Source: a bacterium (GTDB lineage: Bacteria; UBA10199; 2-02-FULL-44-16; JAAZCA01). From it: DNA of 64,000 bases. The notes beneath the pieces are model-generated. The model was not told where the DNA came from, did not search any database, and was given only the letters and a program-made list of their open reading frames with translations. The translations under genes were made by a program, and so were the position numbers. The stretch is from NCBI GenBank assembly GCA_963674695.2, contig CAXXGI010000003.1, positions 320,001 to 384,000 on the forward strand. The letters are read 5' to 3'. Below, one piece after another: positions 2,647 to 45,250 of the stretch (position 1 is the stretch's first letter; each line of letters starts with the position of its first letter).

Positions 2647-2673
2647 ACAACATATTCTCGGTATAGCCGATAC
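2647..2673 (+). promoter_or_regulatory. Putative sigma28-like promoter ACAA-N15-GCCGATAC
   Basis: Matches the motif shared by the orphan genes; nearly the same as the promoter of the paralog at 25012. Confidence 0.65.
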
Positions 2674-2718
2674 GAAGGAAGATAGAGGGAGGACTATGCT
2701 CTTTGGGTGCAGGAGGAC

Positions 2719-3744
2719 ATGATGGTGTTCACAATGAATGGGGGAGGGGGAAGTCTCATTTCGCCTGCGAAGTTTGCCGAAGCCGTTGGGATGTATGCCT
2801 TTCCCATCGACACCCTGCCGAGCGTTCCGAATTATAACGAGTTCGATGATCCCGAACCGGCTCCGTTCGATGCGGTGCACGCGAGTGATGTCGGCGCATT
2901 CGTCAATGTCATGATCGGCGCTGCTCGCGTAATGGGTCCGGGCGATGGCTATGTTCTTGCCGAGGATCTGGGGACATCACTGCTGACGCTTTCCGGATCG
3001 CAGCCGGGTCAGAAGGTCGTCTTTGCCCAATATCCGGAATTGAGCACCAGCATCGAATGGCATCTGGATGCACCGGAGTATGGTATGAGGATGATGTATG
3101 ACGTGACGATTCCAATGGATATGGATCCGTCGCGCAGCGCTCTTGTAGAGCTCTCCGAAACGTCGATGGCGCGTTTTCTTTGTCAGGCAGCGAGCACATT
3201 GGTCACGGAGTATGAGCGCGGAAGGGTTATCGCCTCAGATCGCATCACGAGGGCGCAATACAATCAAAGCTTGTTGAAATGTCTTTTCAGTCCGGAGCTG
3301 GGCTGGGCCACGGTTGATTTGGGGGGTGCATGGATGATTCCGAATCCCCCGATCGCCCTTGAGACCGCGCTCGATCTTCTGCTCCCTATCCAGTCTCATG
3401 ATCACTTCAAAAGGCGCGTTGCCTTGACTCGAGAAGTGCTGTTGGGAACTCCAGTTGGATTCTTCAATGGATCGGAAGGATGGAGTTCCGATGCGGTCAT
3501 AGAAAAACAGCTCTTTACGGCTCCCGAATCTCCAAACGGTCTTCAGACTTATGCGCGATCTCTCTGGACCGATCGCATGCCCTATCTCGCCGTCGCTGCC
3601 GCCAGTGATGAGCGGTATTGCGTTGAATTCGCCGATCGGTTTCTGAGGGGCGACGGTGCTGCGAATGTTCCCACGATGTCGGCTCCCTTCAACGCCTTCT
3701 GGGCATCTGCGGCGCGGACAGCGCTCGGCATCGGCAATCGATAA
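2719..3744 (+). CDS. Hypothetical protein, paralog of 25087..25977
   Basis: AGGAGG SD before ATG 2719; shares MYxFPIDTLP, MGPGDGY and TMSAPFNAFWASAAR with 25087. Confidence 0.8.
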   Translation: MMVFTMNGGGGSLISPAKFAEAVGMYAFPIDTLPSVPNYNEFDDPEPAPFDAVHASDVGAFVNVMIGAARVMGPGDGYVLAEDLGTSLLTLSGSQPGQKVVFAQYPELSTSIEWHLDAPEYGMRMMYDVTIPMDMDPSRSALVELSETSMARFLCQAASTLVTEYERGRVIASDRITRAQYNQSLLKCLFSPELGWATVDLGGAWMIPNPPIALETALDLLLPIQSHDHFKRRVALTREVLLGTPVGFFNGSEGWSSDAVIEKQLFTAPESPNGLQTYARSLWTDRMPYLAVAAASDERYCVEFADRFLRGDGAANVPTMSAPFNAFWASAARTALGIGNR

Positions 3745-3795
3745 TTTCGAATAAACCTTGAAATGCTGAGGGATGGTGTGACAGGTTCTTCTCCT

Positions 3796-5067
3796 ATGCA
3801 TGCCCGTATCGCCATTGTGACCCTCGGCTGTAAGGCCAACTGGGTTGATTCCGAATCGATGGCCCAGGCGCTTGCCCGCGCGGGGTTTGAAATCGTCCCC
3901 GTGGAGGCCGAGGCAGAGGCCTATATCATCAACACGTGCACGGTGACGGCGGTGGCCGATCAGCAGTCGCGTCAGATGATTCGCCGGGTGCGGCGCGCAC
4001 ATCCGCAGGCACTGGTCGTGGCCACCGGTTGTTTGGGTGAGGTGGATATCGAACAGGTCGAGGCGATATCGGGCATCGATATCGTCTTTGGAACCTCCAA
4101 TCGAGAGGCGATGTTGACGTATTTGGTCGAGGCGTTTGTGTTGGATGGTCATCATCTGCCGCAGCTAAAATCCCCCACCGAACCCCAGTCGCGCGCACGC
4201 GCGTTCCTCAAGATTCAAGATGGGTGTAATCGCGCTTGTGCCTACTGCATCATTCCACGGGCGCGGGGGAAGAGTCGTTCGTTTCCCATGAGCGAGATCG
4301 TCGCCGACTGTCGGGAAATCTCCCGGCATCACCATGAGATCGTCCTGACGGGAATCGATATCGGGCAGTATGGCGAGCGAATCGGGCCGGGGCTCGTCGA
4401 TTTGCTCACAGCACTTGTGAATGAGCCAGGGTGCGCGCGCATTCGACTCAGTTCGCTTGGGCCCAAGCGCATCGATGAGGAACTCGTTGAGCTGATGGCC
4501 GCTTCTCAGGGTCGCATCTGTCGTCATGTGCATCTTTCGATTCAGAGTGGGTCGGATGCAGTTTTAACCGCGATGGCTCGTGGATATGCGACAGACGACA
4601 TCGTGCGTGCGGTCGAGCGCCTGATGAAGGCGATTCCCCACATCGCCATCACGGGAGATGCGATCGCGGGCTTCCCCGGTGAAACGGAAGCGCATCATCA
4701 CGAGACGATGGCCCTTATCGATCGTCTTCCCCTGTCCGGTCTGCACGTCTTTCCCTACTCGGAGCGTCCCGGTACGCGGGCGGCTCAGATGGAGGGTTTT
4801 GTTCCGGTGACGATGCGAAGAGCGCGTGCCAAGGACTTGCGCGGGCTGGCGCAGGCGAAACGCGAGGCTTTTCTCGCCACACTCGTTGGGGTTTCGCTCA
4901 AGGCGATTGTCGTCTCGCGTTCGGCCGATGAATCTGGTATGGTCGAAGCCATTACGGATAATGGCGTTTCGTTGCGCGTGCCCGAGGGGCGGGTTGCCTA
5001 TGCCGACATCGGGCGCGTGACGGTGACGCACACGGAAGGGGAAATGGTATTCGGACAATGGGTATGA
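3796..5067 (+). CDS. mtaB: tRNA methylthiotransferase MtaB (MiaB-like radical SAM)
   Basis: TLGCKAN, INTCTVT, KIQDGCNRACAYCIIPRARG (CxxxCxxC), HVFPYSERPGT. Confidence 0.92.
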   Translation: MHARIAIVTLGCKANWVDSESMAQALARAGFEIVPVEAEAEAYIINTCTVTAVADQQSRQMIRRVRRAHPQALVVATGCLGEVDIEQVEAISGIDIVFGTSNREAMLTYLVEAFVLDGHHLPQLKSPTEPQSRARAFLKIQDGCNRACAYCIIPRARGKSRSFPMSEIVADCREISRHHHEIVLTGIDIGQYGERIGPGLVDLLTALVNEPGCARIRLSSLGPKRIDEELVELMAASQGRICRHVHLSIQSGSDAVLTAMARGYATDDIVRAVERLMKAIPHIAITGDAIAGFPGETEAHHHETMALIDRLPLSGLHVFPYSERPGTRAAQMEGFVPVTMRRARAKDLRGLAQAKREAFLATLVGVSLKAIVVSRSADESGMVEAITDNGVSLRVPEGRVAYADIGRVTVTHTEGEMVFGQWV

Positions 5068-5789
5068 CCAAAGACGACAAACAGCGCATCAAAGAATTCG
5101 AACGGAATCTCGGCTATCGCTTCAAACGGCGCGAATACCTCAAACGAGCGTTGACGCACCGATCCTTCGCCAATGAGCAGCGGCTTGCCGCCACCGACAA
5201 CAACGAACGCTACGAATATCTGGGCGACGCGGTTCTCGAGCTGTCCGTGAGTCATCTGCTCATGGAACGTTTTCCGGAGCATCCGGAGGGCGAACTCTCC
5301 AAGTTGCGCGCGGCGATCGTCAATGAAGGGCAGTTGGCCGATATCGCGCGCAGCATCGATCTGGGGCAGTATCTCTATCTCGGCAAAGGAGAGGATCAGA
5401 CTGGCGGGCGAGACAAACCGTCGCTTCTCTCCGATGCGTTTGAAGCGGTTTTGGGCGCGGTCTATCTCGATCGGGGTTTTTCAAAGGCCTTCGCGGTGAT
5501 CGAGCAGCTCTACGACAAGATCCTTGAACGCGCGGGCGGCGTTGGATTCGTGCGCGACTACAAGACGCGTTTACAAGAGGTGAGTCAGTCGCGCTTCCGT
5601 GCCGTGCCGCGCTATCGCCTTGCGCGTACGACCGGTCCCGACCACTCCAAGATCTTCGAGATCAAGCTCTTCATCAACGATGAACTCTGGGGCGAAGGGG
5701 AAGGCACCAGCAAAAAGGCCGCGGAGCAGGAGGCCGCAAAGATCGCCCTCGAAAAACTCACCTCCGTCGTCGAAGACGATCCCTCCTAG
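5064..5789 (+). CDS. rnc: Ribonuclease III
   Basis: ALTHRS, NERYEYLGDAVLEL, DAFEAVLGAVYLD, C-terminal dsRBD (DYKTRLQE...SKKAAEQEAA). Confidence 0.97.
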   Translation: MTKDDKQRIKEFERNLGYRFKRREYLKRALTHRSFANEQRLAATDNNERYEYLGDAVLELSVSHLLMERFPEHPEGELSKLRAAIVNEGQLADIARSIDLGQYLYLGKGEDQTGGRDKPSLLSDAFEAVLGAVYLDRGFSKAFAVIEQLYDKILERAGGVGFVRDYKTRLQEVSQSRFRAVPRYRLARTTGPDHSKIFEIKLFINDELWGEGEGTSKKAAEQEAAKIALEKLTSVVEDDPS

Positions 5790-6271
5790 TCGGCTTCTGT
5801 TATCTGTTCCATTTCCGCTTTCGGGTTGTCGCGCACCATCGTTTCCGCAGAGATCTTTGACGCCGTGATGGCGAATTCGTCATCCTTTTCCGAAATGGTG
5901 ATGACGGCGGAAAATTGAACGCGATCGCAGCACCAGTCTGCCTCGGGGGCTTCCGGGGCGTCTTCTGGAGGTGTGCAGATTTCGGCATCCTGCGGGATGT
6001 GCATGTAGTGCAGGTGGTCGCGAAATGCGTGCAGCGATGGTCGCGTCAGTCCTGCCTGTGTGGTCAGGATGCCACGGCTATGTAGGTACTCCTGCGCCGT
6101 CATGAGTTCTTCGTTGCTGAATCCATCCTTTCCATCCGCTGCGGCAATGTCGTTCAACCGCTCATTGATCTGCTCGACATCCTCTTGATGCAGTTCGACC
6201 GTGTGTTGCTTCGGAAGGGATGCCTTGAGCTGTCGCAGTGAAAGATCATTACCCATATAATCGGATGCCAT
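5786..6271 (-). CDS. Hypothetical protein (orphan, acidic)
   Basis: GGAGG SD before ATG 6271; GCCGATAA box upstream; no recognisable domain. Confidence 0.7.
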   Translation of the reverse strand: MASDYMGNDLSLRQLKASLPKQHTVELHQEDVEQINERLNDIAAADGKDGFSNEELMTAQEYLHSRGILTTQAGLTRPSLHAFRDHLHYMHIPQDAEICTPPEDAPEAPEADWCCDRVQFSAVITISEKDDEFAITASKISAETMVRDNPKAEMEQITEAD

Positions 6272-6300
6272 TTTTCCTCCTCTTTGGTGGTGACAATCCA

Positions 6301-6329
6301 TTATCGGCCGGTGACGTGCTCGGGGTTGT
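6301..6329 (-). promoter_or_regulatory. Putative sigma28-like promoter ACAA-N17-GCCGATAA
   Basis: Perfect GCCGATAA about 30 nt upstream of the orphan start. Confidence 0.55.
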
Positions 6330-6421
6330 CTGAAGGGAATGAATTTCGGTAGCTGCTGTTACCGCGACAAAATAATGCCGGAAATGGGCCTGTTGGGCCA
6401 CGAGAGAGGGGGGCGCAGGGT

Positions 6422-6450
6422 TTGCAATCTCAGGCGAGCCTCACTATAGT
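6422..6450 (+). promoter_or_regulatory. Putative sigma70 promoter for azoR (TTGCAA-17-TATAGT)
   Basis: Near-consensus boxes with 17-nt spacing. Confidence 0.5.
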
Positions 6451-6560
6451 GCCGCAACAAGGTGCAGGAAGGTGCGCGTGTTGTTTGAAATGAATGCATG
6501 GACGAAAGAGGGTGCTACATCGCCACTCATATAACTGAAGTCTCTCAACGGGAGGTTCAC

Positions 6561-7199: not shown

Positions 7200-8522
7200 G
7201 TGGTGATGGGGGTGACGCCGGAACGATTGATTCTCTTCGCCAGCTATCCCACACCGGGAGCGGTGAAGACGCGTCTCATTCCTGCGCTGGGGGCAGAGGG
7301 GGCAGCCCAGCTTCACCGGCAACTCACCTCATCCTGTCTCGAAACCGTTCACACCGTCACCGATGAACACGATATCGATGTTGAAGTGTGCGCGGCAGGC
7401 GCGGATGCTCAGCAGATGGAGGATTGGCTCGGTCCCGATCACCGATACGGTGCGCAGGGGGAGGGTGATCTCGGGGCACGCATGGCGCGTGCGTTTACGA
7501 AAGGGTTTGAGGCGGGAGCTGAGCGCATCGTCATCATCGGATCTGATTGTCCGTTTCTTTCACCATCGCTCATCGCATTGGCATTCGAGGCCCTCACAGC
7601 GCGAGACCTTGTGATCGGACCGACGGTCGATGGCGGTTCCTATCTCATCGGTCTGAGTCGTTTCGTGCCACAGCTCTTTCTCGATATCCCCTGGGGAACG
7701 GAGAAGGTTCTCTCCCGTATGCTCGCCATCGCCCGCAAACGTGGGCTCGAGACCTACCAGCTCGAAGCACTCCCCACCGTCGATCGTTCCGAGGACCTTG
7801 CATTGCTGGCGCGAGCAGGGATGTCACTTCCTCGCTCTGCCGGCGGTCGTCGCCTCTCGATCATCGTGTCGACGTACAACGAGGCGTCGACCATCGGGGG
7901 AACGCTCGCGCGCCTGAGCGAGGCAACGGATGCTGAGATCATCGTCGTCGATGGCGGCAGTCGGGATGGGACGCCCGATATCGTGCAATCGGCGGGCGTG
8001 CGACTGATGCTCAGTGCGCCGGAGCCAACCGAGCAGTTGCGTGCAGGGGCGACCGTCGCCCAGGGAGATATTCTGCTCTTCATGCCCGCCGATACGATGA
8101 TGCCCCGCGGATTCGATGCGATGGTGCGTCAGGCGTTGGGAAAAATGGATGTGGCTGGTGGAGCCTTTGCCTTTCGAACCGATCGAGACGGCATTGGCGT
8201 GCGCGTGATCGAGGCATTGGCCAACATGCGTTCGCGCATCCTGGGTATGCCCGACGGCGGTCAGGCGCTCTTCATTCGGCGCGAGGCCTATGAGGCGGCG
8301 GGCGGAATTCCCGATCTTCCGATCATGGAAGTGTATGAATTGGTGCGACGCCTGAAAAAGCAGGGGAGGGTCGTGACGCTTCCGGAACCGGCGATCACCT
8401 CTGGGCAGCGATGGGAAGGACAAGGATTCTTGCGCACAGCCGTACTCACGCCATTGATGATCCTCGGATATCATCTAGGGGTTTCGCCGGAGCGTTTGGC
8501 GCGTTTGGTTCAGTCGAAATAG
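7200..8522 (+). CDS. Fused CofC-like (TIGR04282/DUF2064) and GT2 (TIGR04283-like) glycosyltransferase
   Basis: N-half: PGAVKTRL, QGEGDLGARM, IIGSDCP, GPTVDGG; C-half: SIIVSTYNEA, IIVVDGGSRDGT, TSGQRW. Confidence 0.85.
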   Translation: MVMGVTPERLILFASYPTPGAVKTRLIPALGAEGAAQLHRQLTSSCLETVHTVTDEHDIDVEVCAAGADAQQMEDWLGPDHRYGAQGEGDLGARMARAFTKGFEAGAERIVIIGSDCPFLSPSLIALAFEALTARDLVIGPTVDGGSYLIGLSRFVPQLFLDIPWGTEKVLSRMLAIARKRGLETYQLEALPTVDRSEDLALLARAGMSLPRSAGGRRLSIIVSTYNEASTIGGTLARLSEATDAEIIVVDGGSRDGTPDIVQSAGVRLMLSAPEPTEQLRAGATVAQGDILLFMPADTMMPRGFDAMVRQALGKMDVAGGAFAFRTDRDGIGVRVIEALANMRSRILGMPDGGQALFIRREAYEAAGGIPDLPIMEVYELVRRLKKQGRVVTLPEPAITSGQRWEGQGFLRTAVLTPLMILGYHLGVSPERLARLVQSK

Positions 8523-9190
8523 ACGGGGTAGGTCTGGGCATTGCTCTCTGCATCGGCTTCCGATTCCTCGTCGGTCAGATCCTCTTCATCCTCATCCTCA
8601 TCCTCATCCGCGTCCGCCGGTTCGACATCGACCGTCTCGGTCTCTTCGCATTCCATCGCATAGGTTGCGACGAGTTCATCGACGGTGTCGATGAGATCCA
8701 AAACGGCATCGGAGAGCCCGCAATCGTTTGAGGTGCGGATGTTGTTTGCCACGTCGGTGGTGGCATAGGAGATGTCATACCAGCCAGCGTATTCCATCGT
8801 GCAGATCATGCTTTCATCGAGGGTGAAGTCGATGAGGTCGGAGGTGACGATCCCCTCGAGGACGGCGTCGAAATCTTCCGGTGCGAGCGGTAGCGTCGTG
8901 GTGCAGATCTCCTCGCGCGTCTCCTGATCGTCATCGCGATTGATTACCTGCTGGTGGATCGTGATATTCTGCTCGGCATCGATGGTCACGGTGGTGATGC
9001 CTTCGGCCGCGAGGTCGAAGGTGGGAACGCCGGTCGAGGCGTAGGCGCCGCCCATCTCGATGGTGAGTTCCTGAAAAACGTCTTTTTCCTGGGAGACGGC
9101 CAGACTCAGGTCGGTGCCGGAGTTATTATCACTGCACGCGCCGAGTATGAGACCGCAGAGCACGACGATCATGATGGACTTCACCTTCAT
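8510..9190 (-). CDS. Lipoprotein with acidic C-terminal tail (paralog of 9321..9923)
   Basis: Lipobox LGAC; VSQEKDVFQELTI aligns with VSSEEGVFQTLEI; DEDEDEDEED tail. Confidence 0.8.
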   Translation of the reverse strand: MKVKSIMIVVLCGLILGACSDNNSGTDLSLAVSQEKDVFQELTIEMGGAYASTGVPTFDLAAEGITTVTIDAEQNITIHQQVINRDDDQETREEICTTTLPLAPEDFDAVLEGIVTSDLIDFTLDESMICTMEYAGWYDISYATTDVANNIRTSNDCGLSDAVLDLIDTVDELVATYAMECEETETVDVEPADADEDEDEDEEDLTDEESEADAESNAQTYPVYFD

Positions 9191-9217: not shown

Positions 9218-9244
9218 GTATCGCGGAATCGGCGGGAAAGTTGC
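9218..9244 (-). promoter_or_regulatory. Putative sigma28-like promoter GCAA-N15-CGCGATAC
   Basis: Shared orphan-gene motif with exact 15-nt spacing. Confidence 0.55.
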
Positions 9245-9320: not shown

Positions 9321-9923
9321 TCAATCATCATCATCATCATCATCATCGCCATCCGGTGGATTCATCAGCGACGGATGGAGGAGTCGCGGCCGGATGATCG
9401 GAATAAGGGTGAGCTGCGGCGTGGCATCATCCGCGGAACAATCCGGAATCAGGTCATCGGCCATCGCGCCCAGCGCTTGGATGATGTCCTCCACGGGGGC
9501 CGCGAGTTCACAGCTGGTCGTAAACTCGTTGAACATGCCGTCCTGGCGACGATAGCTGATGCTCACTTCATCCGCATCCTCGCCTTCCTCGCAATCGGCA
9601 TCCGGGCTGTAGCTAAAGAGTTCGGCGGCGTCGAGCAGGGCCACGATATCGGCGATATCCTCCTCGGTCAGATCAGCGCTGTCGGAGCAGACCGTCGTCA
9701 GACTCCCGTTTTTCTTCTGCTTGATCACGCGCTTGAGCCCACGGTTGACGTCCGCCGTGATCTCCTCGGTCACCGAGCCCGGAAGCTGCTGTGTGATCTC
9801 GAGGGTCTGGAAGACGCCTTCCTCGCTGCTCACCGAAAAATCAGGAAAGGTGATCTCGCCGTCGGCGCAGCCCGCGAAGAGCATGCAAAGAATAATGATG
9901 GGTAGTGTTCGTTTCATAGTCAT
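9321..9923 (-). CDS. Lipoprotein with poly-Asp tail (paralog of 8510..9190)
   Basis: Lipobox FAGC; conserved Cys pattern; ends GDDDDDDDD encoded by (GAT)n. Confidence 0.8.
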   Translation of the reverse strand: MTMKRTLPIIILCMLFAGCADGEITFPDFSVSSEEGVFQTLEITQQLPGSVTEEITADVNRGLKRVIKQKKNGSLTTVCSDSADLTEEDIADIVALLDAAELFSYSPDADCEEGEDADEVSISYRRQDGMFNEFTTSCELAAPVEDIIQALGAMADDLIPDCSADDATPQLTLIPIIRPRLLHPSLMNPPDGDDDDDDDD

Positions 9924-9939: not shown

Positions 9940-9966
9940 TTTTCGGCAGATTTCGGTAGATGTTGC
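9940..9966 (-). promoter_or_regulatory. Putative sigma28-like promoter GCAA-N15-GCCGAAAA
   Basis: Shared orphan-gene motif. Confidence 0.6.
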
Positions 9967-10040: not shown

Positions 10041-10067
10041 GCAACTCTTTTCGTGTTCTGCCGATAA
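10041..10067 (+). promoter_or_regulatory. Putative sigma28-like promoter GCAA-N15-GCCGATAA
   Basis: Perfect sigma28 -10 box with 15-nt spacer, 24 nt before ATG 10092. Confidence 0.7.
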
Positions 10068-10091: not shown

Positions 10092-11270
10092 ATGATTCCG
10101 ATTATCGTTCTGGGGCTGGCCTTCCTTGCTGGATGCGGATCTGCTGTGGTTGAATCCGAGAAAAAAAAGGACCAGAAACCGGAGGATAAGGGTGGCGAGC
10201 CTTCGGGCGAGCCTTCGATCGAAGCGCTCGCTCCGTTCGAGGCCCAGCGTGTCTGTCCTGAAGAGAGTGACGATTCCTCTGTCGTTGAGAACGGTGAGAG
10301 TTTCTCGGCGTTGAGCGACGACTCCGGCTATGCGTGCGTCGTCCATCGGTGGGATCGGGATGCCGATCAAACATCGGTTCGGGCACAGGTGCATCGTTTT
10401 GGTGAACGGGCGCCGATCTGGACGCAGGAACCGTTCGATCTCAATGTTTTGTTTCCAAAGGTCAATATTCACGGGGAAGAGGGAAGGATGATGCTGACCT
10501 ATCACGATGGGACGAATCAGGTGATCCATCACATCGCGCCGGAGGAGGAACGCATCGTGATGGACGAGGTGTCCGGATGTGTGGTCAGTGCGGACGGAAC
10601 GCTCGGGGTGATGGTTCGAGATGATAAACGGCAGGCCTTCGACCCGGCCGAACCGGATGTGGATAGCGTCTGTCGATTCGATGCCGAGGAGGTTGGACTC
10701 ATCAAGGGCCTCGCCAATGACGGCACGTTGCTCTTGGGCGGGATCCGGCTGGTGACGGATGTGCCCAACGCGACGCTCGATGAGTTTTTGGACTCCTATT
10801 ATGTCGTCGAGGATTCCTATCTCTCGAATTCCTGTTCGGGCGAGAACCGGATGATCGCCGATTCGCGTCGTTGGCCCTGTATGGAGATGCAGCGCATCTC
10901 CGACGACGGGAGCACGATCGCCATCACCAACGCCTGTGATCCGCACCTGCTCGTTGTCGATGGGGAGGCGTCAGTCCTGGCCGTTCCGCCGGAGGGAGCC
11001 GAGTATCTGCATCCCCTCGGGATGAGCGCAAACGGCCGGACGATCTGTTTTGCGACGGCGGGGGACTACCTGCTCTACGATGCGGTCGATGCGCGCTGGA
11101 CGAACGTCCGCGGGCGTTTCCCGCTGGCGCTCGATTCCGACAGCATCCTCACGGTGGCGTGCGAGGTGGCCAGCCTCGATGGCGTCGAGGGGGCGCTCTA
11201 TTTCGCGGACTCCGAAGCGGGGATGCATTTCATCTATCGCGCGGATCTTCGGGATGTTTGGGAGCGCTAG
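10092..11270 (+). CDS. Hypothetical lipoprotein, possibly beta-propeller
   Basis: Lipobox LAGC; repeated VSADG/LANDG/ISDDG/MSANG blade-like motifs. Confidence 0.75.
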   Translation: MIPIIVLGLAFLAGCGSAVVESEKKKDQKPEDKGGEPSGEPSIEALAPFEAQRVCPEESDDSSVVENGESFSALSDDSGYACVVHRWDRDADQTSVRAQVHRFGERAPIWTQEPFDLNVLFPKVNIHGEEGRMMLTYHDGTNQVIHHIAPEEERIVMDEVSGCVVSADGTLGVMVRDDKRQAFDPAEPDVDSVCRFDAEEVGLIKGLANDGTLLLGGIRLVTDVPNATLDEFLDSYYVVEDSYLSNSCSGENRMIADSRRWPCMEMQRISDDGSTIAITNACDPHLLVVDGEASVLAVPPEGAEYLHPLGMSANGRTICFATAGDYLLYDAVDARWTNVRGRFPLALDSDSILTVACEVASLDGVEGALYFADSEAGMHFIYRADLRDVWER

Positions 11271-14642: not shown

Positions 14643-15539
14643 ATGACCTTTCATTCCGGATATGCGGCGCTCGTGGGGCGCCCCAACGTCGGCAAGTCGA
14701 CGCTCATCAACGCGATTCTCGGCGAGGCTCTGGCCATCGTCACGCCGAAGGCACAGACCACGCGTCATCGCATCGTGGGGATTCTCAACGTGCCCGAAGC
14801 GCAGGTCGTCTTCCTCGACACGCCCGGGTATCATCGCTCGGGAAAGCTCCTCAATCGTTCGATGAACGATATCGTCGATGCGGTCATCGACGACGCCGAC
14901 GTGATCTGTCTGATGGTGGATGCGACCGACGACGATCCGAGCATGGAGCGCACGCTCTTCGATCGCATCGGCGCCGAGCGCTGTGTGATTGTCGTCAACA
15001 AGGCCGATCTGGTCAAACGCGAGCGCTTCGATGCTCTCGCGGCGCGTTTTCGCGACGAATGGAAGGCGAAAGAGATGATCATCCTCTCCGCGCTCAAGAA
15101 CGAGGGCGTGATGACGCTCATCGACGCGATCGTCAAGCGCCTGCCGGAGGGAGAACCCTTCTATCCGACGGACATCTACGCCGACCACCCGGTGCGCTTT
15201 CTCGCGGCGGAACTCATTCGGGAACAGGTCTTTTTGCAGATGCAGCAGGAGATCCCCTACGCCGCCGCCGTCGAGATCGAGTCGTTCACGGATGCGACCG
15301 ACGATGATCCCATCACGCGCATCCATGCGGCGATCATCGTCGAGCGCGATACGCAGAAGGGGATGGTCGTGGGCAAGGGCGGAACTCGCATCAAGGCGAT
15401 TGGGCAGCGCTCGCGCCTCAAGATCGAAGCGCTCGTCGGCGGAAAGGTCTTTCTCGACCTTCGTGTGCGTGTGGAAAAGGATTGGACCAAGGATTCCGAG
15501 GCGATTCGAAAGTTCGGGTATGCGCGTCAGCTGGACTAA
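14643..15539 (+). CDS. era: GTPase Era
   Basis: GRPNVGKSTL, KAQTTRHRI, DTPG, NKAD, QEIPY, KH domain GKGG. Confidence 0.97.
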   Translation: MTFHSGYAALVGRPNVGKSTLINAILGEALAIVTPKAQTTRHRIVGILNVPEAQVVFLDTPGYHRSGKLLNRSMNDIVDAVIDDADVICLMVDATDDDPSMERTLFDRIGAERCVIVVNKADLVKRERFDALAARFRDEWKAKEMIILSALKNEGVMTLIDAIVKRLPEGEPFYPTDIYADHPVRFLAAELIREQVFLQMQQEIPYAAAVEIESFTDATDDDPITRIHAAIIVERDTQKGMVVGKGGTRIKAIGQRSRLKIEALVGGKVFLDLRVRVEKDWTKDSEAIRKFGYARQLD

Positions 15540-16558
15540 CGTTCCTCTTCTGTTTTCTTCTCTCGATCCAATATCTCGAGTATCGCGACGCCGGCACGGT
15601 AGGGCGCTTGTGAAGAGAGGTAATCGGAAAGTTTCTCCTCATAGATCGTATCGCGTTTACTGCGAATCGTGCCGTGACGAATGACGGGTTCAAGGCAGGC
15701 CTTTTCCTGATCCCCATTCGGCGCGAGCAATAGCGCGACGTGTGAGATGATCACTCCTGCAGCATGGGCGCGCGATTCGGGAAGGGCGAATGCCAGGATC
15801 GATGCCTCGGGAAGGCGGGCGACCATTTCTTCATTCAGGATGCGGTGCTGGCCATCGACGAACCAGGCGGACATGGGGATGATCTCCACGGCGGTTGCTT
15901 CCGGTTCCATCAACTCGAGACGATCGAACTGCTTGAAGATTTCGGTTTTCTGATCGATGGTCAAGTCGGTGCGTTGGCCGATCCATTTCGCGCGATCGAT
16001 CGTGCTACGGATCGTTTCGGTCTTGTCTTCACCGACCCAGCTGGTGACGTCCTGCACGAACCCGCGCATCTCGTTCGTTGCCATCCAGTCGGCGGAAAAA
16101 AAGTGGAGTCGCCCGCCATAGATGCCTCGTCCATCCTCATGATAGCGGATGGTGGTCAGCGCCTCCTGGAAATCGGAGAAAGTGGTGCTCAATGAAAGCG
16201 CCATGACGTGTTCGATAAAGGTGACGCAGTCATGCCCGTCGAAGCGAAACATCGGATCGGTATCGATGGAAGCGCCTTCGCCTTCACCCGTGGCATCGAG
16301 CAGAAAGGGGAGGTCGAGAAAACGGCGGCTGATGCAGTCGATGCGCGGTGTGGGCGCAAACGCATGGATGCGAGAGAGCGTTTCCTCGAAGGTATTCTGA
16401 TCGTTCGGATCGAAGGCGCAGCCGGTCTGCTCGGGACGGCAGAGATCGACCGATGTCGCCATCGACATCATCGGAGACGCGTCGATGCATTCCGGGTGCG
16501 ACATCACTCGGCATTCCCATCGATCGGGGGATGGGCTGATCGGGATATCCTTTGCCAT
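15536..16558 (-). CDS. DUF1460 / NlpC-P60-like N-acetylmuramoyl-L-alanine amidase
   Basis: GEGEG..DTDPMFRFDGHDCVTFIEHVMAL (catalytic Cys), RLHFFSADW, SHVALL (His); no Sec signal peptide. Confidence 0.85.
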   Translation of the reverse strand: MAKDIPISPSPDRWECRVMSHPECIDASPMMSMATSVDLCRPEQTGCAFDPNDQNTFEETLSRIHAFAPTPRIDCISRRFLDLPFLLDATGEGEGASIDTDPMFRFDGHDCVTFIEHVMALSLSTTFSDFQEALTTIRYHEDGRGIYGGRLHFFSADWMATNEMRGFVQDVTSWVGEDKTETIRSTIDRAKWIGQRTDLTIDQKTEIFKQFDRLELMEPEATAVEIIPMSAWFVDGQHRILNEEMVARLPEASILAFALPESRAHAAGVIISHVALLLAPNGDQEKACLEPVIRHGTIRSKRDTIYEEKLSDYLSSQAPYRAGVAILEILDREKKTEEER

Positions 16559-16567: not shown

Positions 16568-16594
16568 TTATCGGATTTTCTCCGAAAAAGGTGC
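16568..16594 (-). promoter_or_regulatory. Putative sigma28-like promoter GCAC-N15-TCCGATAA
   Basis: Shared orphan-gene motif, only 9 nt upstream of the ATG. Confidence 0.55.
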
Positions 16595-18586: not shown

Positions 18587-18613
18587 GCAACTTTTCGTGG
18601 CGGCAGCCGAAAA
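18587..18613 (+). promoter_or_regulatory. Putative sigma28-like promoter GCAA-N15-GCCGAAAA
   Basis: Shared orphan-gene motif. Confidence 0.6.
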
Positions 18614-18653: not shown

Positions 18654-20441
18654 ATGGGAAGCACATCCGATGTGGCAGCGAAAAGGTGTAATGGTGTGAA
18701 AAACCAAAACCAGTGCGAGCAGTATGTGGGCGACTGTGTGCGGCAAAAGCGGCTCCAGAAGGGGAAATCGAAGAAGGAGAAGGTCTTCGTCCTCGATCCG
18801 CCGGGGCCGGACGCGCGCGCCTATCGAACCTATTCCGAGTGCGTCAATGATGCCGACAATGTTGCGGCGAGCTTTCCTCCCGATCCGGATTGGTGCGCCG
18901 ATGCGGGCGATGCGGATTCCTGCGACGAACTGGTAGGATCCTGTGTCGAGCAGCGTAAAGCGGGGAAGAAGAAGTTCTTCCTCGATGCGGGCGAAGGGCT
19001 CACGATCAGCGCCCAATCCTTCGGTTCCTGTGTCAAGTGGGCCGGACGTCTTACGCGTCGCGCCCCGCAGGTGAAGAAGAAGGCGAAACAGGTCGTCGAG
19101 AAGAAGGACGAGACGGGGGTTCAAGAGAAGGGACAAAAAAAGGTCGAGGAGAAGCAAGTCGAGATTGGAACCCTCCCGAAGCCCGTCGCGAACTGGTCCA
19201 AGGTTCATTCCTCTCGGTATGATAGCGTTCCGGATCAGGAAGACGTCGATTACATCATGTCGTCGAGCTACAACGAAAAGAAAAAGAGCGGCGAGATCGT
19301 CGTCGTCATCGGCGGGAAGCCCAAGACATTCACGTCCAATCAAGCGGCCCAGAAGCTGGTGAAGCACTATGCGCGCAGAGAGCGCCTGGTGAAAAAGAAT
19401 TTTTCTAGCCGGATCGATTCGCTCCTGCAGGAGCTGATGCGGATTGGTACGAAGGTGAAGAAAAAACCCACATCGATGGAGAAGGATTCCGTCTATTATG
19501 AACGCACGCGCACTTCCGACAATGAGACGATCGAGGAGGTGCGCATTCTGGCCACCGGCCCGCGCGCCGTTCTGATCATGAAGGAAATGGCTGAACTCAA
19601 GGCGAAGCGGAATGCCTTGATCGGTCGTTTGCGTCAGGAATGTCTGAAGAAGATCATGGCACTGAAACTCAAGAAGGCGACGGTTGGGCAGAAGAGCGAC
19701 ACGGCCTTCGATGAAATGGAGGAGGAGGAGAAGAAGGCGCCGTCGCAGGAGCTTGCGCCCCAGGGTAAGGAGAAGAAAGCCCAAAAGGGTGAGGGCGTAC
19801 AGGCAGAGCCGAAGGCGGAACAGGAACCGGTGGTTCAGGTCATCAATAGGAGTATGCAGCATATTCCCCAGACGACGACGCTCCTCATCGCCAACGCGTT
19901 GGTGGAGGCAGGGTTCGAAGGCAAGGCGGAGCTGGTCGAGCATGTTCAGGATCAGGACAAGAAAAACGTTGATCGCTATTTCTCAATCGTCCTCACCGCA
20001 AAGGATGGGAGCCAGGGCGTATTGCTCCTTCCGGTCATCACGCATAAGCGTGGTTCAATATTCAGCGCGACCGATCTGGAGGGAGCGGTGGGCCAAGTGA
20101 TCGGTACGTGGAAGGCGACGATGGGCCCGGCCTCCTGCGCCAAGGGAAAGGTGCAGAATGCAACCTATATGCATATCGCGTCCGATGTGATGGTGGCGGC
20201 GAAGATTCAATGCCACCGCATGGGCTATGCCGGTGCCGTCACCATTGAAACCCTGATTCGCATAGAAGATGAGAAGCGATTTTCCACGATTCGCATCGTC
20301 GTCGAAGTGGAGAAGGGACAGCAGAAGGTTTTCTCCCTCAAACAGCGAGAGGGTTCGATCGATGCCAAGGGCTGGCGCGAAATCATCGAGGAGATCGGTG
20401 CACTCAAGAAGAGCGATGCCAAAACGCTGAAGAAAAAATAA
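18654..20441 (+). CDS. Lys/Glu-rich hypothetical protein with two N-terminal Cys-rich repeats
   Basis: AGGAGG SD before ATG 18654; long ORF; CEQYVGDCVRQ / CDELVGSCVEQ repeats. Confidence 0.8.
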   Translation: MGSTSDVAAKRCNGVKNQNQCEQYVGDCVRQKRLQKGKSKKEKVFVLDPPGPDARAYRTYSECVNDADNVAASFPPDPDWCADAGDADSCDELVGSCVEQRKAGKKKFFLDAGEGLTISAQSFGSCVKWAGRLTRRAPQVKKKAKQVVEKKDETGVQEKGQKKVEEKQVEIGTLPKPVANWSKVHSSRYDSVPDQEDVDYIMSSSYNEKKKSGEIVVVIGGKPKTFTSNQAAQKLVKHYARRERLVKKNFSSRIDSLLQELMRIGTKVKKKPTSMEKDSVYYERTRTSDNETIEEVRILATGPRAVLIMKEMAELKAKRNALIGRLRQECLKKIMALKLKKATVGQKSDTAFDEMEEEEKKAPSQELAPQGKEKKAQKGEGVQAEPKAEQEPVVQVINRSMQHIPQTTTLLIANALVEAGFEGKAELVEHVQDQDKKNVDRYFSIVLTAKDGSQGVLLLPVITHKRGSIFSATDLEGAVGQVIGTWKATMGPASCAKGKVQNATYMHIASDVMVAAKIQCHRMGYAGAVTIETLIRIEDEKRFSTIRIVVEVEKGQQKVFSLKQREGSIDAKGWREIIEEIGALKKSDAKTLKKK

Positions 20442-20654: not shown

Positions 20655-21077
20655 ATGCATTCCATGACCAATCGAATCGAACGAACGATCCTCGCACGCG
20701 CTGAGCGCGGCGAGGATCTCTTTTTCTGCCTCACGCGGCTGGTCGAAGAAAACGATGTTCGCTGCGGTGCTCTGCAGGTCATCGGCGCGGTTGCGAAGGC
20801 CAAGCTCGGCATCTTTGAAGACGGACGCTACGAGTGGGTCGAACACGACGGTGCGCTCGAGATCGCTTCCTGCACGGGCAACGTCGCGCTCAAAGAGGGT
20901 GTGCCCTTCGTGCATGCGCATGCGGTGCTCACCGATCATCGGGGGACCGTGCTGGGCGGGCATGTGGGCGAGGGCTGCATCATCGATCCGACCGCCGAGA
21001 TCCACCTGCAGATCTGGGCCGATGAGGTCTCGCGCCGCCTGGATGAGGCGACGGGTTTGTGGCTGCTCGATATCTAA
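20655..21077 (+). CDS. PPC domain (DUF296) protein
   Basis: LEIASCTGNV, PFVHAHAVL, GGHV, TAEI; AGGAGG SD. Confidence 0.9.
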   Translation: MHSMTNRIERTILARAERGEDLFFCLTRLVEENDVRCGALQVIGAVAKAKLGIFEDGRYEWVEHDGALEIASCTGNVALKEGVPFVHAHAVLTDHRGTVLGGHVGEGCIIDPTAEIHLQIWADEVSRRLDEATGLWLLDI

Positions 21078-22750
21078 TCAATAAACTGTAGCACCTTCGC
21101 CGAGAGGATGCGGCCGTTGGGGTTTCCGGCCTCGACGGCGATGGCGGTTTCATCCGTCTTGAAATACCAGGCGAGCATCGGCTTGGTGATGGCGCGGTCC
21201 TTCCTCCCTGCGTTGAGCATCTTGGGCGAGAGGACGACGAGTTTTGCGCCCTTCGCCCCCAATTTCATGAGCGATTTTTTACACGTGGCGACGAGGCTGT
21301 GAATGGTGTTCGCCTCCACCGGTGCATCCTCGCGCCGCTTGAGATCCTCTTCGATGTTCGAGGTGACGGCATGCATCGCCTTGGCGAACGCCTTCTCCTT
21401 CGTGAGCCGCACCGTCTCGTCGAACGACCCCTGGGCGATCGGCAGCACGCCTTCGGTGTGCACGACGCCCTTCCGGTCGATCAGCTTTCCGTGCCCGAGG
21501 ACGGGCAGGGTGTAGGGCTTTCTCGTCTTTCGCGATTTCGTCTTCGTGACATAGAGCTGTTCTGCGACGCGCACCCGTCCCTCTCCCTTTACGACGCGCG
21601 GGTCCGCGCCGAGGATGACCGGCTTTGTAAACTGCATGCCGGCCAGCGTTGTGGGCTGCGCCTTGGGCGCGCCCATAAACTGTTCCATCCAGTCGAATTC
21701 GCGCACTTTCGCTTCAGCCTCGATCTCGCGCACAATGTCGTTCTGTCCGATGCCGAGTTGCGCGAGTTCGTCGAGCTCTCCAGCGGCGAAGAGCCCTTGG
21801 GTTCCCTTGACGACGGCGGGTTTGAAATCCGCAAAGGAAGGGGTGGGGACGATGTAGCTGTCGGCATGGGCGACGACCATCTTCAGGACCGCGATGCGCG
21901 CCATGACCCGGTTCTCGGGTGAACAGCGCCCCGTGCGTTTTTCGATGAGTCCTTCGATGCGCCCCATGAGCTTCCACCAGAAGCCGCTGTAGACCGTGCC
22001 GATGTGATGTGAATCGATATTCGGTTTCTTGACCGAAAAGATATCGCGGAACGTCGTCGTGTTGTTGCAGGTGCGCAGGCCCCTCGCTGTGCCGCGGTTG
22101 CGTCCCTTGAAGTAGCCGATATCCTCGGCGATCTGAGCGTCGCCGTGGATGAGCGCGGCGATGGCGTCGGCGCACCCCTCGTGGATGGCCAGCCCCGCCC
22201 CCAGAAAGGTGTCGGCCAGCTTCTTGTTGATCATGTCGATCACCCAATGGCCGGTCTCGTGCAAAACGATGTCGCCGTCGGAGGCAAAGGCGTTGCCGAA
22301 CGAGAGATCCTCGTCGGAGGGCATATAGAAGGCGTTGTTGAAGTTCGGAATGTTGATCGCCGCCGGAAGGGGCCCGCTATGGCGATCGCGCATATACCGG
22401 AGGAAGTGCATGTCGAGCCCGACGCGATCGCTCATGAAGCGGATGAAGGTGTCGAGTTCGTGATAGACCTGGCGATGACTGAAACAGGGGTTGCGCGTGA
22501 CGCCGTCGGCTTGGAAAGGAGGGCAGGTGAAGAGATTCGCCCAGGGCTGCACGTCGTTGACGCAGACGTTGTCGCCGCACATCGCCGTTGCCCCCTTGGG
22601 CAGCGTGATCTCGACCTCGCGCGTGATGCCGAGCGAGCGCCCCTCGCGCTTGGCGCGATCAACAGCCTGCTTGCTCGAATAGTAGTTTTCCTTCTGCCAG
22701 ACGGTGACTCTGTGGTGGCAGACATTTCCTTCGCAGCGCATGGAACCCAT
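21074..22750 (-). CDS. M4/M36-like zinc metalloprotease with apparent C-terminal FTP/PepSY-like region
   Basis: NNAFY, DIVLHETGH (HExxH), AIHEGCAD (third Zn ligand), DSHHIG; AAGGAGG SD before ATG 22750. Confidence 0.85.
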   Translation of the reverse strand: MGSMRCEGNVCHHRVTVWQKENYYSSKQAVDRAKREGRSLGITREVEITLPKGATAMCGDNVCVNDVQPWANLFTCPPFQADGVTRNPCFSHRQVYHELDTFIRFMSDRVGLDMHFLRYMRDRHSGPLPAAINIPNFNNAFYMPSDEDLSFGNAFASDGDIVLHETGHWVIDMINKKLADTFLGAGLAIHEGCADAIAALIHGDAQIAEDIGYFKGRNRGTARGLRTCNNTTTFRDIFSVKKPNIDSHHIGTVYSGFWWKLMGRIEGLIEKRTGRCSPENRVMARIAVLKMVVAHADSYIVPTPSFADFKPAVVKGTQGLFAAGELDELAQLGIGQNDIVREIEAEAKVREFDWMEQFMGAPKAQPTTLAGMQFTKPVILGADPRVVKGEGRVRVAEQLYVTKTKSRKTRKPYTLPVLGHGKLIDRKGVVHTEGVLPIAQGSFDETVRLTKEKAFAKAMHAVTSNIEEDLKRREDAPVEANTIHSLVATCKKSLMKLGAKGAKLVVLSPKMLNAGRKDRAITKPMLAWYFKTDETAIAVEAGNPNGRILSAKVLQFID

Positions 22751-22773: not shown

Positions 22774-22800
22774 TTATCGCTTCTTCTCGCAAAATGTTGC
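22774..22800 (-). promoter_or_regulatory. Putative sigma28-like promoter GCAA-N15-AGCGATAA
   Basis: Shared orphan-gene motif; supports the start at 22750. Confidence 0.6.
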
Positions 22801-25011: not shown

Positions 25012-25038
25012 GCAACATATTTTCTATAGCGTCGATAC
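25012..25038 (+). promoter_or_regulatory. Putative sigma28-like promoter GCAA-N15-GTCGATAC
   Basis: Shared orphan-gene motif; spacer begins CATATT as at 2647. Confidence 0.6.
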
Positions 25039-25086: not shown

Positions 25087-25977
25087 ATGGTCGGGACGCT
25101 TTCAGCAGCGAATTTTTTTCAGGCGGCGGCGATGTATGAATTCCCCATCGACACCCTGCCGCAAGTCCCGGCTTGTTCTGGAGACGAATTGCAACAGGTC
25201 CTCTTCGATCCGAGCGATGTGAGCGTTGTTGCGGATCTTGCGGATGGTATGGTTGGTGTCGCTCGCGAGATGGGGCCGGGGGATGGCTATTCCGTTGTGG
25301 AGGAGGGGGGCTCGCATGCATTGACAATCATGGGATCAACGCCGGGACAGCGCGTCGTCCTCTCGCAGGTTGATGGTCGTGGCACGGCGATCGATTGGCA
25401 CCTTGAGGCGCCGAGCATCGGGGCGGCGCTGCTCTATCAGATCGTCATGCCGTATGGAATACTGTCCTATCGCCATGCACGCGTGCAGCTGCCGGAGTTG
25501 GCGATGCCGCGCTTTCTGCGCGGTGCGGTTGAGGCGATCCTTGCCGATCCGGCGCGTTATCCTCAGGAGCGCATCGCTCTGTTTCAGAATGAGGAGCCCT
25601 GGCTGCCGCTGATCTTCGGGCAGGAGGAGGGGCATATCTCCATCGATTGGAATTCCTCGCGTGTTATTCCGGACCGCGTGCGCGATCAGAATGTTTCATT
25701 CGAGCTCCTGCGACCGATGACCGTGCCGACGATCAGCCGGGAGAATGCGGTGGGGGTGATGACGAAAGCCCCGGCGACGATGCCGTCGCTGACGATCTTT
25801 GCCGGACGGGATGGCCGTTATACCGTCGAGATCGCTGATGCGTTTGAAGGGGGCGACGGTCCGGCAGATGCCCTCACGATGTCGGCCCCCTTCAACGCCT
25901 TCTGGGCAAGCGCCGCCCGCGCGGCCAACTTCGCCAACGCGCCCAAGGGGGGCGGTGGGCATACGCATATCGGTTGA
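25087..25977 (+). CDS. Hypothetical protein, paralog of 2719..3744
   Basis: AAGGAGG SD; shared motifs with 2719 along its length. Confidence 0.8.
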   Translation: MVGTLSAANFFQAAAMYEFPIDTLPQVPACSGDELQQVLFDPSDVSVVADLADGMVGVAREMGPGDGYSVVEEGGSHALTIMGSTPGQRVVLSQVDGRGTAIDWHLEAPSIGAALLYQIVMPYGILSYRHARVQLPELAMPRFLRGAVEAILADPARYPQERIALFQNEEPWLPLIFGQEEGHISIDWNSSRVIPDRVRDQNVSFELLRPMTVPTISRENAVGVMTKAPATMPSLTIFAGRDGRYTVEIADAFEGGDGPADALTMSAPFNAFWASAARAANFANAPKGGGGHTHIG

Positions 25978-44429: not shown

Positions 44430-44438
44430 GGTCCTGCC

Positions 44439-45200
44439 TTATGCATCCTTCGAACGGCGCCGACGGAGGATCGGCAGGAGTGTCAGGCCGAAGAGGATGA
44501 GCGCGATCGGGTTGGCCGTCGCTGTCGAGGAGAGGCTGCAACCGCCGCCGTCGGCCTGGGGTGTGGGGAGATCGTCATCATCGTCTCCAGCCGATGACAC
44601 GATGGGGATCGCTCCGTCGTCATCATCATCATCGTCGCCTACGATCACATCGTCATCATCATCGTCGCCTACGATAACGTCATCGTCGTCATCATCATCG
44701 CCGGTAGTTGAGCTTAAGTCGGGATTGAAGAGATGCGGGTTGGTGTTCCCGCCGAATACGACGATTTCGTCGGAGCTGCACGTTTCGTCGACATCGGCCT
44801 GCCCGAGCGGAAGCCAGGGGGATTCAAATGTTTCATCGCTGGGTACGTATTTTACGAACAGCATGACGAAATCATGTTCGACGTCGATCTTGTCGCGCTT
44901 ATCGGTCGATATGTTGCATGAGTAGTCGCGGCCTCCGGCCTTGGAACAGGAGATGCCGTCTTTGATCAGGAAGTGTCTCCCCGATTGTGTCAGAATATCG
45001 GCGTGCAGGCTGAAGTCCTCGGCGCCGAGGTCGGCTCCACAGTTATTGCCCTCGCACGAAAACTCGATTGCTATTTCGAGCGTGTCGCTAGCCGGACAGG
45101 TGATGCCGAGCTTGTAGTCCGCCGGATCCTCAGGAAGGCAGCCGGCGATCAGTGTCAGGGCGGCGACGATGCAGAAGATGTGCGCGAAACGATTGTTCAT
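44439..45200 (-). CDS. Lipoprotein with Asp-rich repeats and MYXO-CTERM-like C-terminal sorting signal
   Basis: Lipobox IAGC; (GDDDDDD.VIV) repeats; GGGCSL...TM...RRRR tail. Confidence 0.82.
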   Translation of the reverse strand: MNNRFAHIFCIVAALTLIAGCLPEDPADYKLGITCPASDTLEIAIEFSCEGNNCGADLGAEDFSLHADILTQSGRHFLIKDGISCSKAGGRDYSCNISTDKRDKIDVEHDFVMLFVKYVPSDETFESPWLPLGQADVDETCSSDEIVVFGGNTNPHLFNPDLSSTTGDDDDDDDVIVGDDDDDDVIVGDDDDDDDGAIPIVSSAGDDDDDLPTPQADGGGCSLSSTATANPIALILFGLTLLPILRRRRSKDA

Positions 45201-45221
45201 GGTATTCCTCCTCTATCCCTA

Positions 45222-45250
45222 TTATCGGCAGACGAGACCTGCGGAGTTGA
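45222..45250 (-). promoter_or_regulatory. Putative sigma28-like promoter TCAA-N17-GCCGATAA
   Basis: Perfect GCCGATAA 21 nt upstream of the start. Confidence 0.55.

Follow-up and report, generated by a model that had tools for sequence, protein, structure and literature searches.

A dispersed promoter box with a GCAAC -35 element in an uncultured UBA10199 bacterium, probably belonging to a sigma-28 paralogue encoded with type III secretion genes

The locus considered here raises the question of which sigma factor serves the orphan genes that lie singly between the core operons of an uncultured bacterium of the phylum UBA10199, and what their products are for. The window, i.e., the whole stretch of 64,000 nucleotides that was analysed (positions 320,001 to 384,000 of contig CAXXGI010000003.1, assembly GCA_963674695.2), contains ten upstream boxes which a sequence-only reading had attributed to a lineage-specific variant of the flagellar sigma factor sigma-28 (FliA/SigD), with GCAAC as its -35 element and dispersed, non-flagellar orphan genes as its targets. 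All ten boxes were found where, and in the orientation in which, that reading had placed them, the base following the -35 tetramer being C in 10/10, and its core proposal held on every test run: the motif is probably the promoter of a re-specified sigma-28 paralogue, a lineage-specific variant with a dispersed and non-flagellar regulon made up mostly of orphan genes. The genome (3.03 Mb, 100% complete) consists of three contigs, named C1 to C3 below, the window lying on C3. Genes were called by a codon-usage heuristic of our own, which gave 2383 genes and left 13.3% of the genome intergenic.

The genome as a whole confirms that the motif is real. A loose regular expression finds 105 matches, 76 of them intergenic, and the spacing from xCAAC to CCGA(T/A)A is exactly 15 nt in 49/49 matches within upstream regions. 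An iterated position-weight matrix yields the genome-wide consensus AAnnaCGCAACTTTT-N10-GCCGATAA, the -10 part of which can be read as gCCGATAa and the -35 part as CGCAAC; nearly all the information is held by these two blocks and almost none by the spacer and flanks. The matrix was trained on sites of the same genome, a split version scoring the -35 and -10 blocks separately. With canonical spacing and a score of at least 13 bits, 188 sites are obtained vs 23-27 in third-order Markov simulations; 159 are intergenic and 143 face the start of a same-strand gene within 200 nt. Raising the threshold to 20 bits leaves 154 sites vs 1.0 in simulated sequence. Intergenic DNA accounts for 143 of these, and 131 of the 154 are directed at a same-strand start no more than 200 nt away, the distance from the end of the -10 box to the start codon having a median of 40 nt (interquartile range 24-54). 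Counts of the exact pattern GCAAC-Nx-CCGATA, with intergenic matches in brackets, are 2 (0) for N13, 0 for N14, 43 (38) for N15, 18 (16) for N16, 23 (20) for N17 and 2 (1) for N18; the reversed pattern, a control that depends on neither gene calls nor matrix, gives 0 against the 43 of N15. The scattering noticed in the window holds genome-wide, the 172 high-confidence intergenic sites being distributed in a near-Poisson manner (2.8 per 50 kb, variance 3.3), and no housekeeping gene of the window is preceded by a site of at least 13 bits, the leftover weak matches being intragenic.

Regarding the type of promoter, the -10 box GCCGATAA and the 15 nt between the -35 pentamer and CCGATA are those of sigma-28, whereas the -35 element is not TAAA(G); the canonical TAAAG-N15-CCGATA occurs once in the genome, outside intergenic DNA. 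According to PMC12784957, the fliC promoter of Pseudomonas aeruginosa reads (-36)TCTAAAG(-30) and (-15)GCCGATAA(-8). At -34 to -30, GCAAC stands in the same register as the sigma-28 -35 pentamer. The sigma inventory of the genome comprises seven Sigma70_r2 matches together with RpoN, namely RpoD, RpoH (269 bits vs a cut-off of 241), a 289-aa protein, a 910-aa RpoD-like fusion and three extracytoplasmic function (ECF) sigma factors. A FliA/WhiG-like sigma, as implied by the earlier proposal, is thus present in the genome: the best NCBIfam family of the 289-aa protein is FliA_WhiG. Its gene (C3:8530-9399) lies outside the window, inside a non-flagellar type III secretion system (T3SS) cluster, and the protein has Pfam regions 2 and 4 without region 1.2, i.e., the architecture of group 3. 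Its best PDB sequence matches are WhiG (6pfv, 6pfj) and FliA (9wsf, 9wsm, 6pmi, 1rp3), WhiG being the closest.

The residues that would contact the two boxes have diverged to different extents. In P. aeruginosa sigma-28, Y76, R80, D87 and R97 contact the -10 region, and S224 and Q228 the -35 region (PMC12784957). In an alignment with the 289-aa sigma, the -10 contacts are kept or conservatively replaced (Y76=F111, R80=R115, D87=D122, R97=R132), and R115, D122 and R132 are invariant, F111 nearly so, in 18 orthologues. Among the base-specific -35 contacts, S224 is kept (S254) whereas Q228 is replaced by R258, the canonical pair of -35 readers no longer being intact; their helix neighbours are also changed, E223 to K253 and R225 to W255. 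The new helix, LSKSW(T/V)SRLH, is itself fixed, with L251, S252, K253, S254, W255, R258 and H260 invariant in 18/18 orthologues. The predicted -10 readers and the -10 box are canonical, and one predicted -35 reader and the -35 box are both changed.

Sigma and motif are found together throughout the host phylum, which is represented in the genome library by 93 species (uncultured metagenome-assembled genomes) of one class and 24 families. GCAAC-N15-CCGATA occurs in 93/93 of these genomes, with 4-79 matches each vs 0-7 for the reversed control, and since it is enriched in all of them the motif is a property of the phylum and not of one genome. The 289-aa sigma is found in 91/93 genomes, at 50-76% identity, and in 63/63 of the high-quality ones; the two genomes without a match are 78% and 73% complete. 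Assembled genomes that contain relatives of this sigma have been deposited as Deltaproteobacteria, Myxococcota, Pseudomonadota or simply "bacterium", and its 1544 metagenomic relatives bear automatic names only.

The cluster that harbors the sigma gene (C3:4.4-21 kb) encodes, in order, a 180-aa protein, a TPR protein, SctJ, a 141-aa protein, the sigma, a 165-aa protein, a weakly FliG-like protein, SctL, the ATPase SctN, a YscO-like protein (FliJ), SctQ/FliN, FliO and, at its end, SctR, SctS and SctT (homologues of FliP, FliQ and FliR). A sigma-54 activator with an FHA domain is encoded near the cluster, SctV/FlhA is encoded away from it in a position adjoining secA, and of the three secretin genes in the genome none lies in it. 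The order p180 - TPR - p141 - sigma - p165 - FliG-like - SctL is kept in relatives' loci, SctJ and SctN flanking the sigma stretch in this genome; SctL is present in 91/93 genomes, mostly on the contig of the sigma among the matches listed. Core export genes are present and Flagellin_N and Flg_bb_rod domains were not found in the genome, so that the secretion system is not a flagellum but resembles an injectisome, and the non-flagellar character proposed for the programme agrees with a genome devoid of flagellin and rod/hook domains. The 180-aa product of the first gene (C3:4428-4970) is variable and Gly/Ser/Ala-rich in its middle, with 50 nearly invariant residues at the C-terminus, and a profile search of the PDB returned no meaningful match; we take it to resemble a needle- or filament-type substrate, and the TPR protein encoded next to it its chaperone. 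The 141-, 165- and 180-aa proteins have no Pfam match even at E <= 10, and for the 141-aa protein an Atlas search gave scores of <=0.85, a lead only. Four genes for PF05635 (23S rRNA-intervening-sequence protein), arranged as two divergent pairs, lie inside the cluster at C3:6717-7472 and C3:18475-19285.

Some members of the phylum are flagellated and allow the two kinds of sigma to be compared side by side. A flagellin match is found in 12/93 genomes, 11 of them above the cut-off, and the upstream regions of flagellin genes were compared in G002, G033, G063-G065, G071, G077, G079, G083, G084 and G087. In G002, G083 and G084 the flagellin contig encodes a second FliA with 27-29% identity to the 289-aa sigma and a helix, ESRI(S/C)Q, of the canonical kind. 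The variant motif precedes 0/14 flagellin-family genes, T(T/C)A(A/G)(G/A)-N14-17-CCG(T/A) precedes 9/14 and a tenth has CTAAAG, and all eleven genomes with an above-cut-off flagellin also carry the variant motif elsewhere. The flagellated relatives, which have a second FliA and both promoter types, thus harbor two coexisting sigma-28-type systems, each with a box of its own, and by sequence comparison the 289-aa sigma is a paralogue distinct from their canonical FliA. The flagellin promoters themselves read T(T/C)AAG(TTT)-N-tCCGT(T/C)nA, with CCGT in the -10 box vs the usual CCGA of sigma-28.

Sites with a 17-nt spacer deserve separate treatment. All motif sites in the T3SS cluster are of this kind, one (C3:4406) ahead of the 180-aa gene and the other (C3:7702) ahead of the 141-aa gene, which is itself followed by the sigma gene. 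Among the relatives' loci that contain the region, 12/14 have a 17-nt site in front of the 141-aa orthologue and hence of the p141-sigma operon, at a distance of 25-50 nt, and 9/13 have one in front of the 180-aa orthologue; every site at these two positions in relatives is 17-nt-spaced. Typically, GCAACTT(T/C) is followed by a spacer rich in G and C and by GCCGATAAT, giving GCAACTTT-GGG...-GCCGATAAT overall, and the class as such is real. Its conserved position suggests a feedback promoter by which the sigma operon would be positively autoregulated. No motif site was found at the export-apparatus genes, which fits a hierarchy where another sigma makes the basal body.

Within the window, the eight 15-nt sites of the sequence-only reading score 22.9-30.8 bits and stand as strong candidates, whereas its two 17-nt sites are individually weak. 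The first strong site, ACAAC-N15-CCGATAC (2647..2673, +, 29.7 bits), precedes a gene for a 345-aa protein (2707..3744, +). GCAAC-N15-GCGATAC (9218..9244, -, 27.9 bits) lies upstream of a gene for a 226-aa protein (8510..9190, -) with a signal peptide and lipobox, both by crude regular expression, a test that also assigns a lipobox to the 200-aa protein encoded at 9321..9923 (-) behind GCAAC-N15-CCGAAAA (9940..9966, -, 22.9 bits) and to the 392-aa protein encoded at 10092..11270 (+) behind GCAAC-N15-CCGATAA (10041..10067, +, 26.5 bits), the last two sites being divergent. An AmiA-like N-acetylmuramoyl-L-alanine amidase of 340 aa (PF07313, 93.7 bits; 15536..16558, -) is encoded downstream of GCACC-N15-CCGATAA (16568..16594, -, 29.9 bits). 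GCAAC-N15-CCGAAAA (18587..18613, +, 30.8 bits) precedes the gene of a 595-aa orphan (18654..20441, +), which has a homologue in 1/92 other genomes of the phylum, at 27% identity, and a weak motif lies ~40 nt before the start of that homologue; the cargo turns over but the box is kept. The remaining two are GCAAC-N15-GCGATAA (22774..22800, -, 30.1 bits), before a gene for a 558-aa protein with the N-terminus MGSMRC (21074..22750, -), and GCAAC-N15-TCGATAC (25012..25038, +, 28.3 bits), before a gene for a 296-aa protein (25087..25977, +). The 345-, 226-, 200-, 392-, 558- and 296-aa proteins belong to no Pfam family, and the same holds for the 161-aa (5786..6271, -) and 253-aa (44439..45200, -) proteins encoded behind the weak 17-nt candidates, ACAAC-N17-CCGATAA (6301..6329, -, <8 bits) and TCAAC-N17-CCGATAA (45222..45250, -, 9.5 bits). 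Both candidates are weak because only the -10 box GCCGATAA matches, perfectly, and the -35 box is poor and lacks the T-tract; at 45222-45250 (-), the -10 block scores 13.2 bits and the -35 block -3.8. A further member reaches into the window with its 3' part only, the gene of a 1327-aa protein (60603..64000, -; C3:380603-384586), where a 28.5-bit site lies ~40 nt upstream of the start, past the right end of the window.

Other genes of the window may be recorded here. A 284-aa protein encoded at 38688-39539 (+), just upstream of dnaE and without a motif site, gives a weak match to Sigma70 region 4 (23 bits) and has a faint likeness to the MzaA/RpoD C-terminus. An AbiEi/AbiEii toxin-antitoxin pair is located at 26119-27716 (+), and a second AbiEii/DUF2204-like nucleotidyltransferase gene follows guaA at 37891-38409 (+). 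Two tandem genes at 46207-47890 (-) encode proteins that have a dCache-type sensor domain but no output domain; a CsgG-like lipoprotein and a DacZ-type diadenylate cyclase are encoded at 49276-50232 (-) and 54551-55444 (-), respectively.

The gene content of the regulon bears out the claim that orphans prevail. Proteins without a Pfam family make up 7/8 products of strong-site genes and 2/2 of weak-site genes in the window vs 9/50 of its other genes; outside the window they account for 45/60 of the top products (E <= 1e-5), 8/12 large or extra products, including four of 2900-3763 aa, and 13/18 products of the 17-nt class. Regarding the members named by the sequence-only reading, the peptidoglycan amidase is found in the window (PF07313), whereas no window motif gene encodes a protein of a protease family. 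Elsewhere in the genome, members include S41 and S8 peptidases, SLT transglycosylases, PilZ, an FGE-sulfatase, an RHS protein, proteins with HEAT, LRR, TSP3 or PKD repeats, an ABC1-kinase fusion, a Metallophos protein, the 910-aa sigma, a histidine-kinase-type ATPase, lipoproteins and Sec-signal proteins. Housekeeping members are rare: SMC and, as judged from N-terminal sequences, argininosuccinate synthase and FtsZ, the site of the latter scoring only 13.8 bits. Four paralogues of 2900-3763 aa without a Pfam family are encoded at C1:243882-280366 and C2:669790-678492, three of them behind motif sites. The idea of one expanded family was rejected, 60/172 regulon genes being paralogous vs 773/2383 of all genes, and the G+C of regulon genes (0.589) equals that of the rest (0.588) and so gives no hint of a recent acquisition from elsewhere.

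The N-termini of the products differ from those of other proteins. By the crude regular expression, a signal peptide is found in 19.5% of regulon products vs 26% of other genes. Glycine is residue 2 in 16% vs 4.6% (odds ratio 4.0, p = 1e-7) and a Cys pair occurs in the first 40 residues in 19.5% vs 7%; Met-Gly starts and N-terminal Cys pairs are reminiscent of the motifs by which effectors active in eukaryotic cells are lipidated. Moreover, C, P, M, S and T are enriched and K, R, I and L depleted, and T3SS signals show an N-terminal composition bias in the same direction (S, T and P up; K, R, L and I down).

Several results weigh against the attribution to a sigma-28 paralogue that would serve secretion. 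The 289-aa sigma scores 132.4 bits, below the FliA_WhiG (TIGR02479) cut-off of 189.6, although this is still its best family, and a Pfam search of the genome found no FlgM-type anti-sigma (best E = 0.12). A search for sequencing runs containing positions 2500-12400 of the window turned up three DNA-type runs from one study and none of RNA. In G093, a genome outside the 93, the sigma is 40% identical and has the same LSKSWTSR helix, yet the exact pattern occurs only twice and the loose one 15 times vs 6 in the control, so that enrichment is not clear and an abundant motif cannot be predicted from the helix alone. Both the gene starts and the signal-peptide calls rest on crude heuristics of our own; about one fifth of the products carry signal peptides or lipoboxes and the products can therefore not all be T3SS substrates. 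Neither do gapped di- and tri-residue patterns disclose a shared linear N-terminal signal, the best having p ~2e-5 before correction for thousands of patterns, i.e., nothing beyond composition. Finally, a 32.1-bit site at C1:32826 precedes an operon SLT - ECF sigma - 128-aa - LTXXQ/Metal_resist and looks like autoregulation by an ECF sigma. This ECF (group 4) sigma (C1:31327-31905) might itself read GCAAC(TTTT)-N16-CGAT as an AAC...CG promoter and control an envelope-stress regulon, to which an amidase, lytic transglycosylases and proteases would be suited; with its AAC and the T-tract behind it, the -35 box here resembles those of ECF promoters. Nevertheless, the motif is present in 93/93 genomes and the ECF sigma (E <= 1e-10) in 18/93, with true orthologues (>=40% identity) only in G008, G006 and G058, and eight genomes without a first-look candidate (G017, G030, G025, G056, G060, G080, G081 and G023) have 9-63 pattern matches; in addition, the -10 box is the exact sigma-28 octamer. 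This sigma was rejected as the reader on its phyletic pattern, the two not co-occurring across the phylum, and an ECF origin of the motif is extremely improbable.

Phyletic patterns exclude only the ECF and the 910-aa sigmas, since RpoD, RpoH and RpoN may be universal in the phylum, and it could be argued that RpoD, RpoH or the 910-aa RpoD-like fusion (C3:147960-150692) reads the motif, or that the 15- and 17-nt classes are read by different factors. The latter form could draw on the G/C-rich spacer and the GCCGATAAT that are particular to the 17-nt class and on the preservation of its spacing at orthologous positions, and the gene of the 910-aa sigma is itself located behind a 33.2-bit site. 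Separate sigma-70-type sites exist, however, TTGACA-N16-18-TAnnnT being found 42 times (38 intergenic) vs 23 (8) for the reversed control, the RpoH consensus is unrelated to the motif, and GCCGATAA is a sigma-28 box whose R80, D87 and R97 contacts are kept in the 289-aa sigma; it is therefore unlikely, to our mind clearly so, that another sigma is at work. The 910-aa protein, in which a 650-aa N-terminal part of no known family is fused to an RpoD-like sigma domain, was rejected as the reader because that part is found in only 6/93 genomes; it may be the second tier of a sigma cascade. That the motif is no promoter at all, but a bipartite operator to which a regulator binds, or a piece of a dispersed repeat element, is hardly credible when the information is limited to two blocks with -35/-10 geometry, the sites of at least 20 bits face gene starts at the short distances given above and spacing is as strict as 43 matches for N15 vs 0 for N14. 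A different objection accepts the sigma and disputes the output, which could be a developmental or stationary-type programme whose products stay inside the cell or leave it through Sec or other routes. WhiG is the closest structural relative of the sigma, and PilZ, the histidine-kinase-type ATPase, SMC, a second sigma, lipoproteins and Sec-signal proteins are among the members, with no common N-terminal export motif found. In Bdellovibrio bacteriovorus, moreover, TTAAG-N16-CCGATA is found at 92/140 mapped attack-phase promoters, many of them non-flagellar (PMC3627812). Against this stand the embedding of the sigma gene in the T3SS cluster phylum-wide, the ~80% of products without a Sec signal in the crude test and the N-terminal bias, computed here, in the direction of T3SS signals; such an output is judged unlikely, though not negligibly so.

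If the 289-aa sigma reads the motif, as is probable, its holoenzyme would bind GCCGATAA at -10 through sigma-2/sigma-3 residues common to canonical sigma-28 and (C)GCAAC(TTT) at -35 through the altered sigma-4.2 helix (LSKSWTSRLH vs SESRVSQLH in canonical FliA), with 14 nt from the -35 pentamer to the G of GCCGATAA as in the geometry of sigma-28. Transcription would start a few bases 3' of the -10 box and leaders would be short. The output would amount to about 170-190 promoters, ~1 gene in 13, single and scattered between core operons; these promoters would precede fast-evolving proteins, mostly without a known family and without a Sec signal, and would also take in envelope enzymes (amidase, lytic transglycosylases, S8 and S41 peptidases) and lipoproteins. 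Plant pathogens encode HrpL, a sigma of the ECF type (group 4), together with their T3SS genes, and the hrp box precedes dispersed effector genes. By analogy with such hrp-box genes and with flagellar class 3, and given the linkage and the missing Sec signals, we infer that the regulon would serve the secretion system as its late programme, many of the products being substrates or effectors, which may form the predation or host-interaction arsenal that the sequence-only reading had envisaged.

A more far-reaching scenario can be put forward only tentatively, namely that at the root of the phylum an injectisome-like T3SS captured a duplicate of the flagellar sigma, the -35 element was rewritten from TAAAG to GCAAC and the box came to mark the late or effector repertoire. 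Three helix substitutions (E to K, R to W and Q to R) would then insulate the sigma from canonical FliA, and each species would have ~100-200 fast-turnover proteins at its disposal, including giants of 2900-3760 aa without a known domain. Lipidation inside a eukaryotic host may account for the surplus of MG starts and Cys pairs at the N-termini, and the 17-nt class would provide the feedback in a hierarchy coupled to secretion, one that would also include an anti-sigma.

If the main reading is right, a short DNA box could yield a near-complete list of the genes that are co-switched with a T3SS in an uncultured phylum with genomes of 1.1-4.6 Mb, i.e., a catalogue of candidate effectors in organisms not yet grown. 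It would also offer a natural case of a sigma paralogue that gained an orthogonal promoter, the reading of the -10 box being kept and that of the -35 box changed via few helix residues, and this change of specificity can be tested by a swap of three residues and five bases. It would, moreover, tie a non-ECF sigma to a non-flagellar T3SS. No description of this variant was found in the open-access papers and preprints searched, the two-promoter regulon of chlamydial sigma-28 being only a partial precedent.

Several known systems can be set beside the one proposed here. As with HrpL, an alternative sigma would be encoded with a T3SS and a fixed bipartite box could be used to list candidate effectors; unlike HrpL, the sigma is FliA-derived (group 3) and the box is different. 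Compared with sigma-28 (FliA/SigD) and its flagellar class 3 promoters, the absence of region 1.2 by Pfam, the conservation of R80, D87, R97 and an aromatic residue at 76 and the location of the gene in a type III export cluster are shared. Class 3 promoters such as P. aeruginosa fliC also have the -10 box GCCGATAA, the register and the T-tract after the -35 element in common with the motif (PMC12784957). In contrast, the -35 element is (C)GCAAC here vs (TC)TAAAG, Q228 is R and its helix neighbours are changed, the sigma falls below the FliA_WhiG cut-off, and neither flagellin, rod genes nor FlgM were found in the genome, so that control of late flagellar genes is not seen. Promoters number about 170-190 vs a handful, and the sigma coexists with a canonical FliA in flagellated relatives. 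Chlamydia trachomatis, which is non-flagellated, likewise combines a FliA-type sigma, a T3SS and late genes (PMC12282069). Chromatin immunoprecipitation sequencing (ChIP-seq) found its sigma-28 at two promoters only, hctB and tsp, and its gene is transcribed by sigma-66 (PMC12282069), whereas well over 100 sites and an apparent autoregulatory promoter are found here. B. bacteriovorus shares with the present phylum sigma-28-type boxes at many non-flagellar genes, including those of proteases and of surface and uncharacterised proteins, but is flagellated and uses a single FliA, with a canonical -35 element, also for its flagellar genes (PMC3627812); in UBA10199 the probable reader is a separate paralogue, which has an altered -35 element and is linked to a non-flagellar T3SS.

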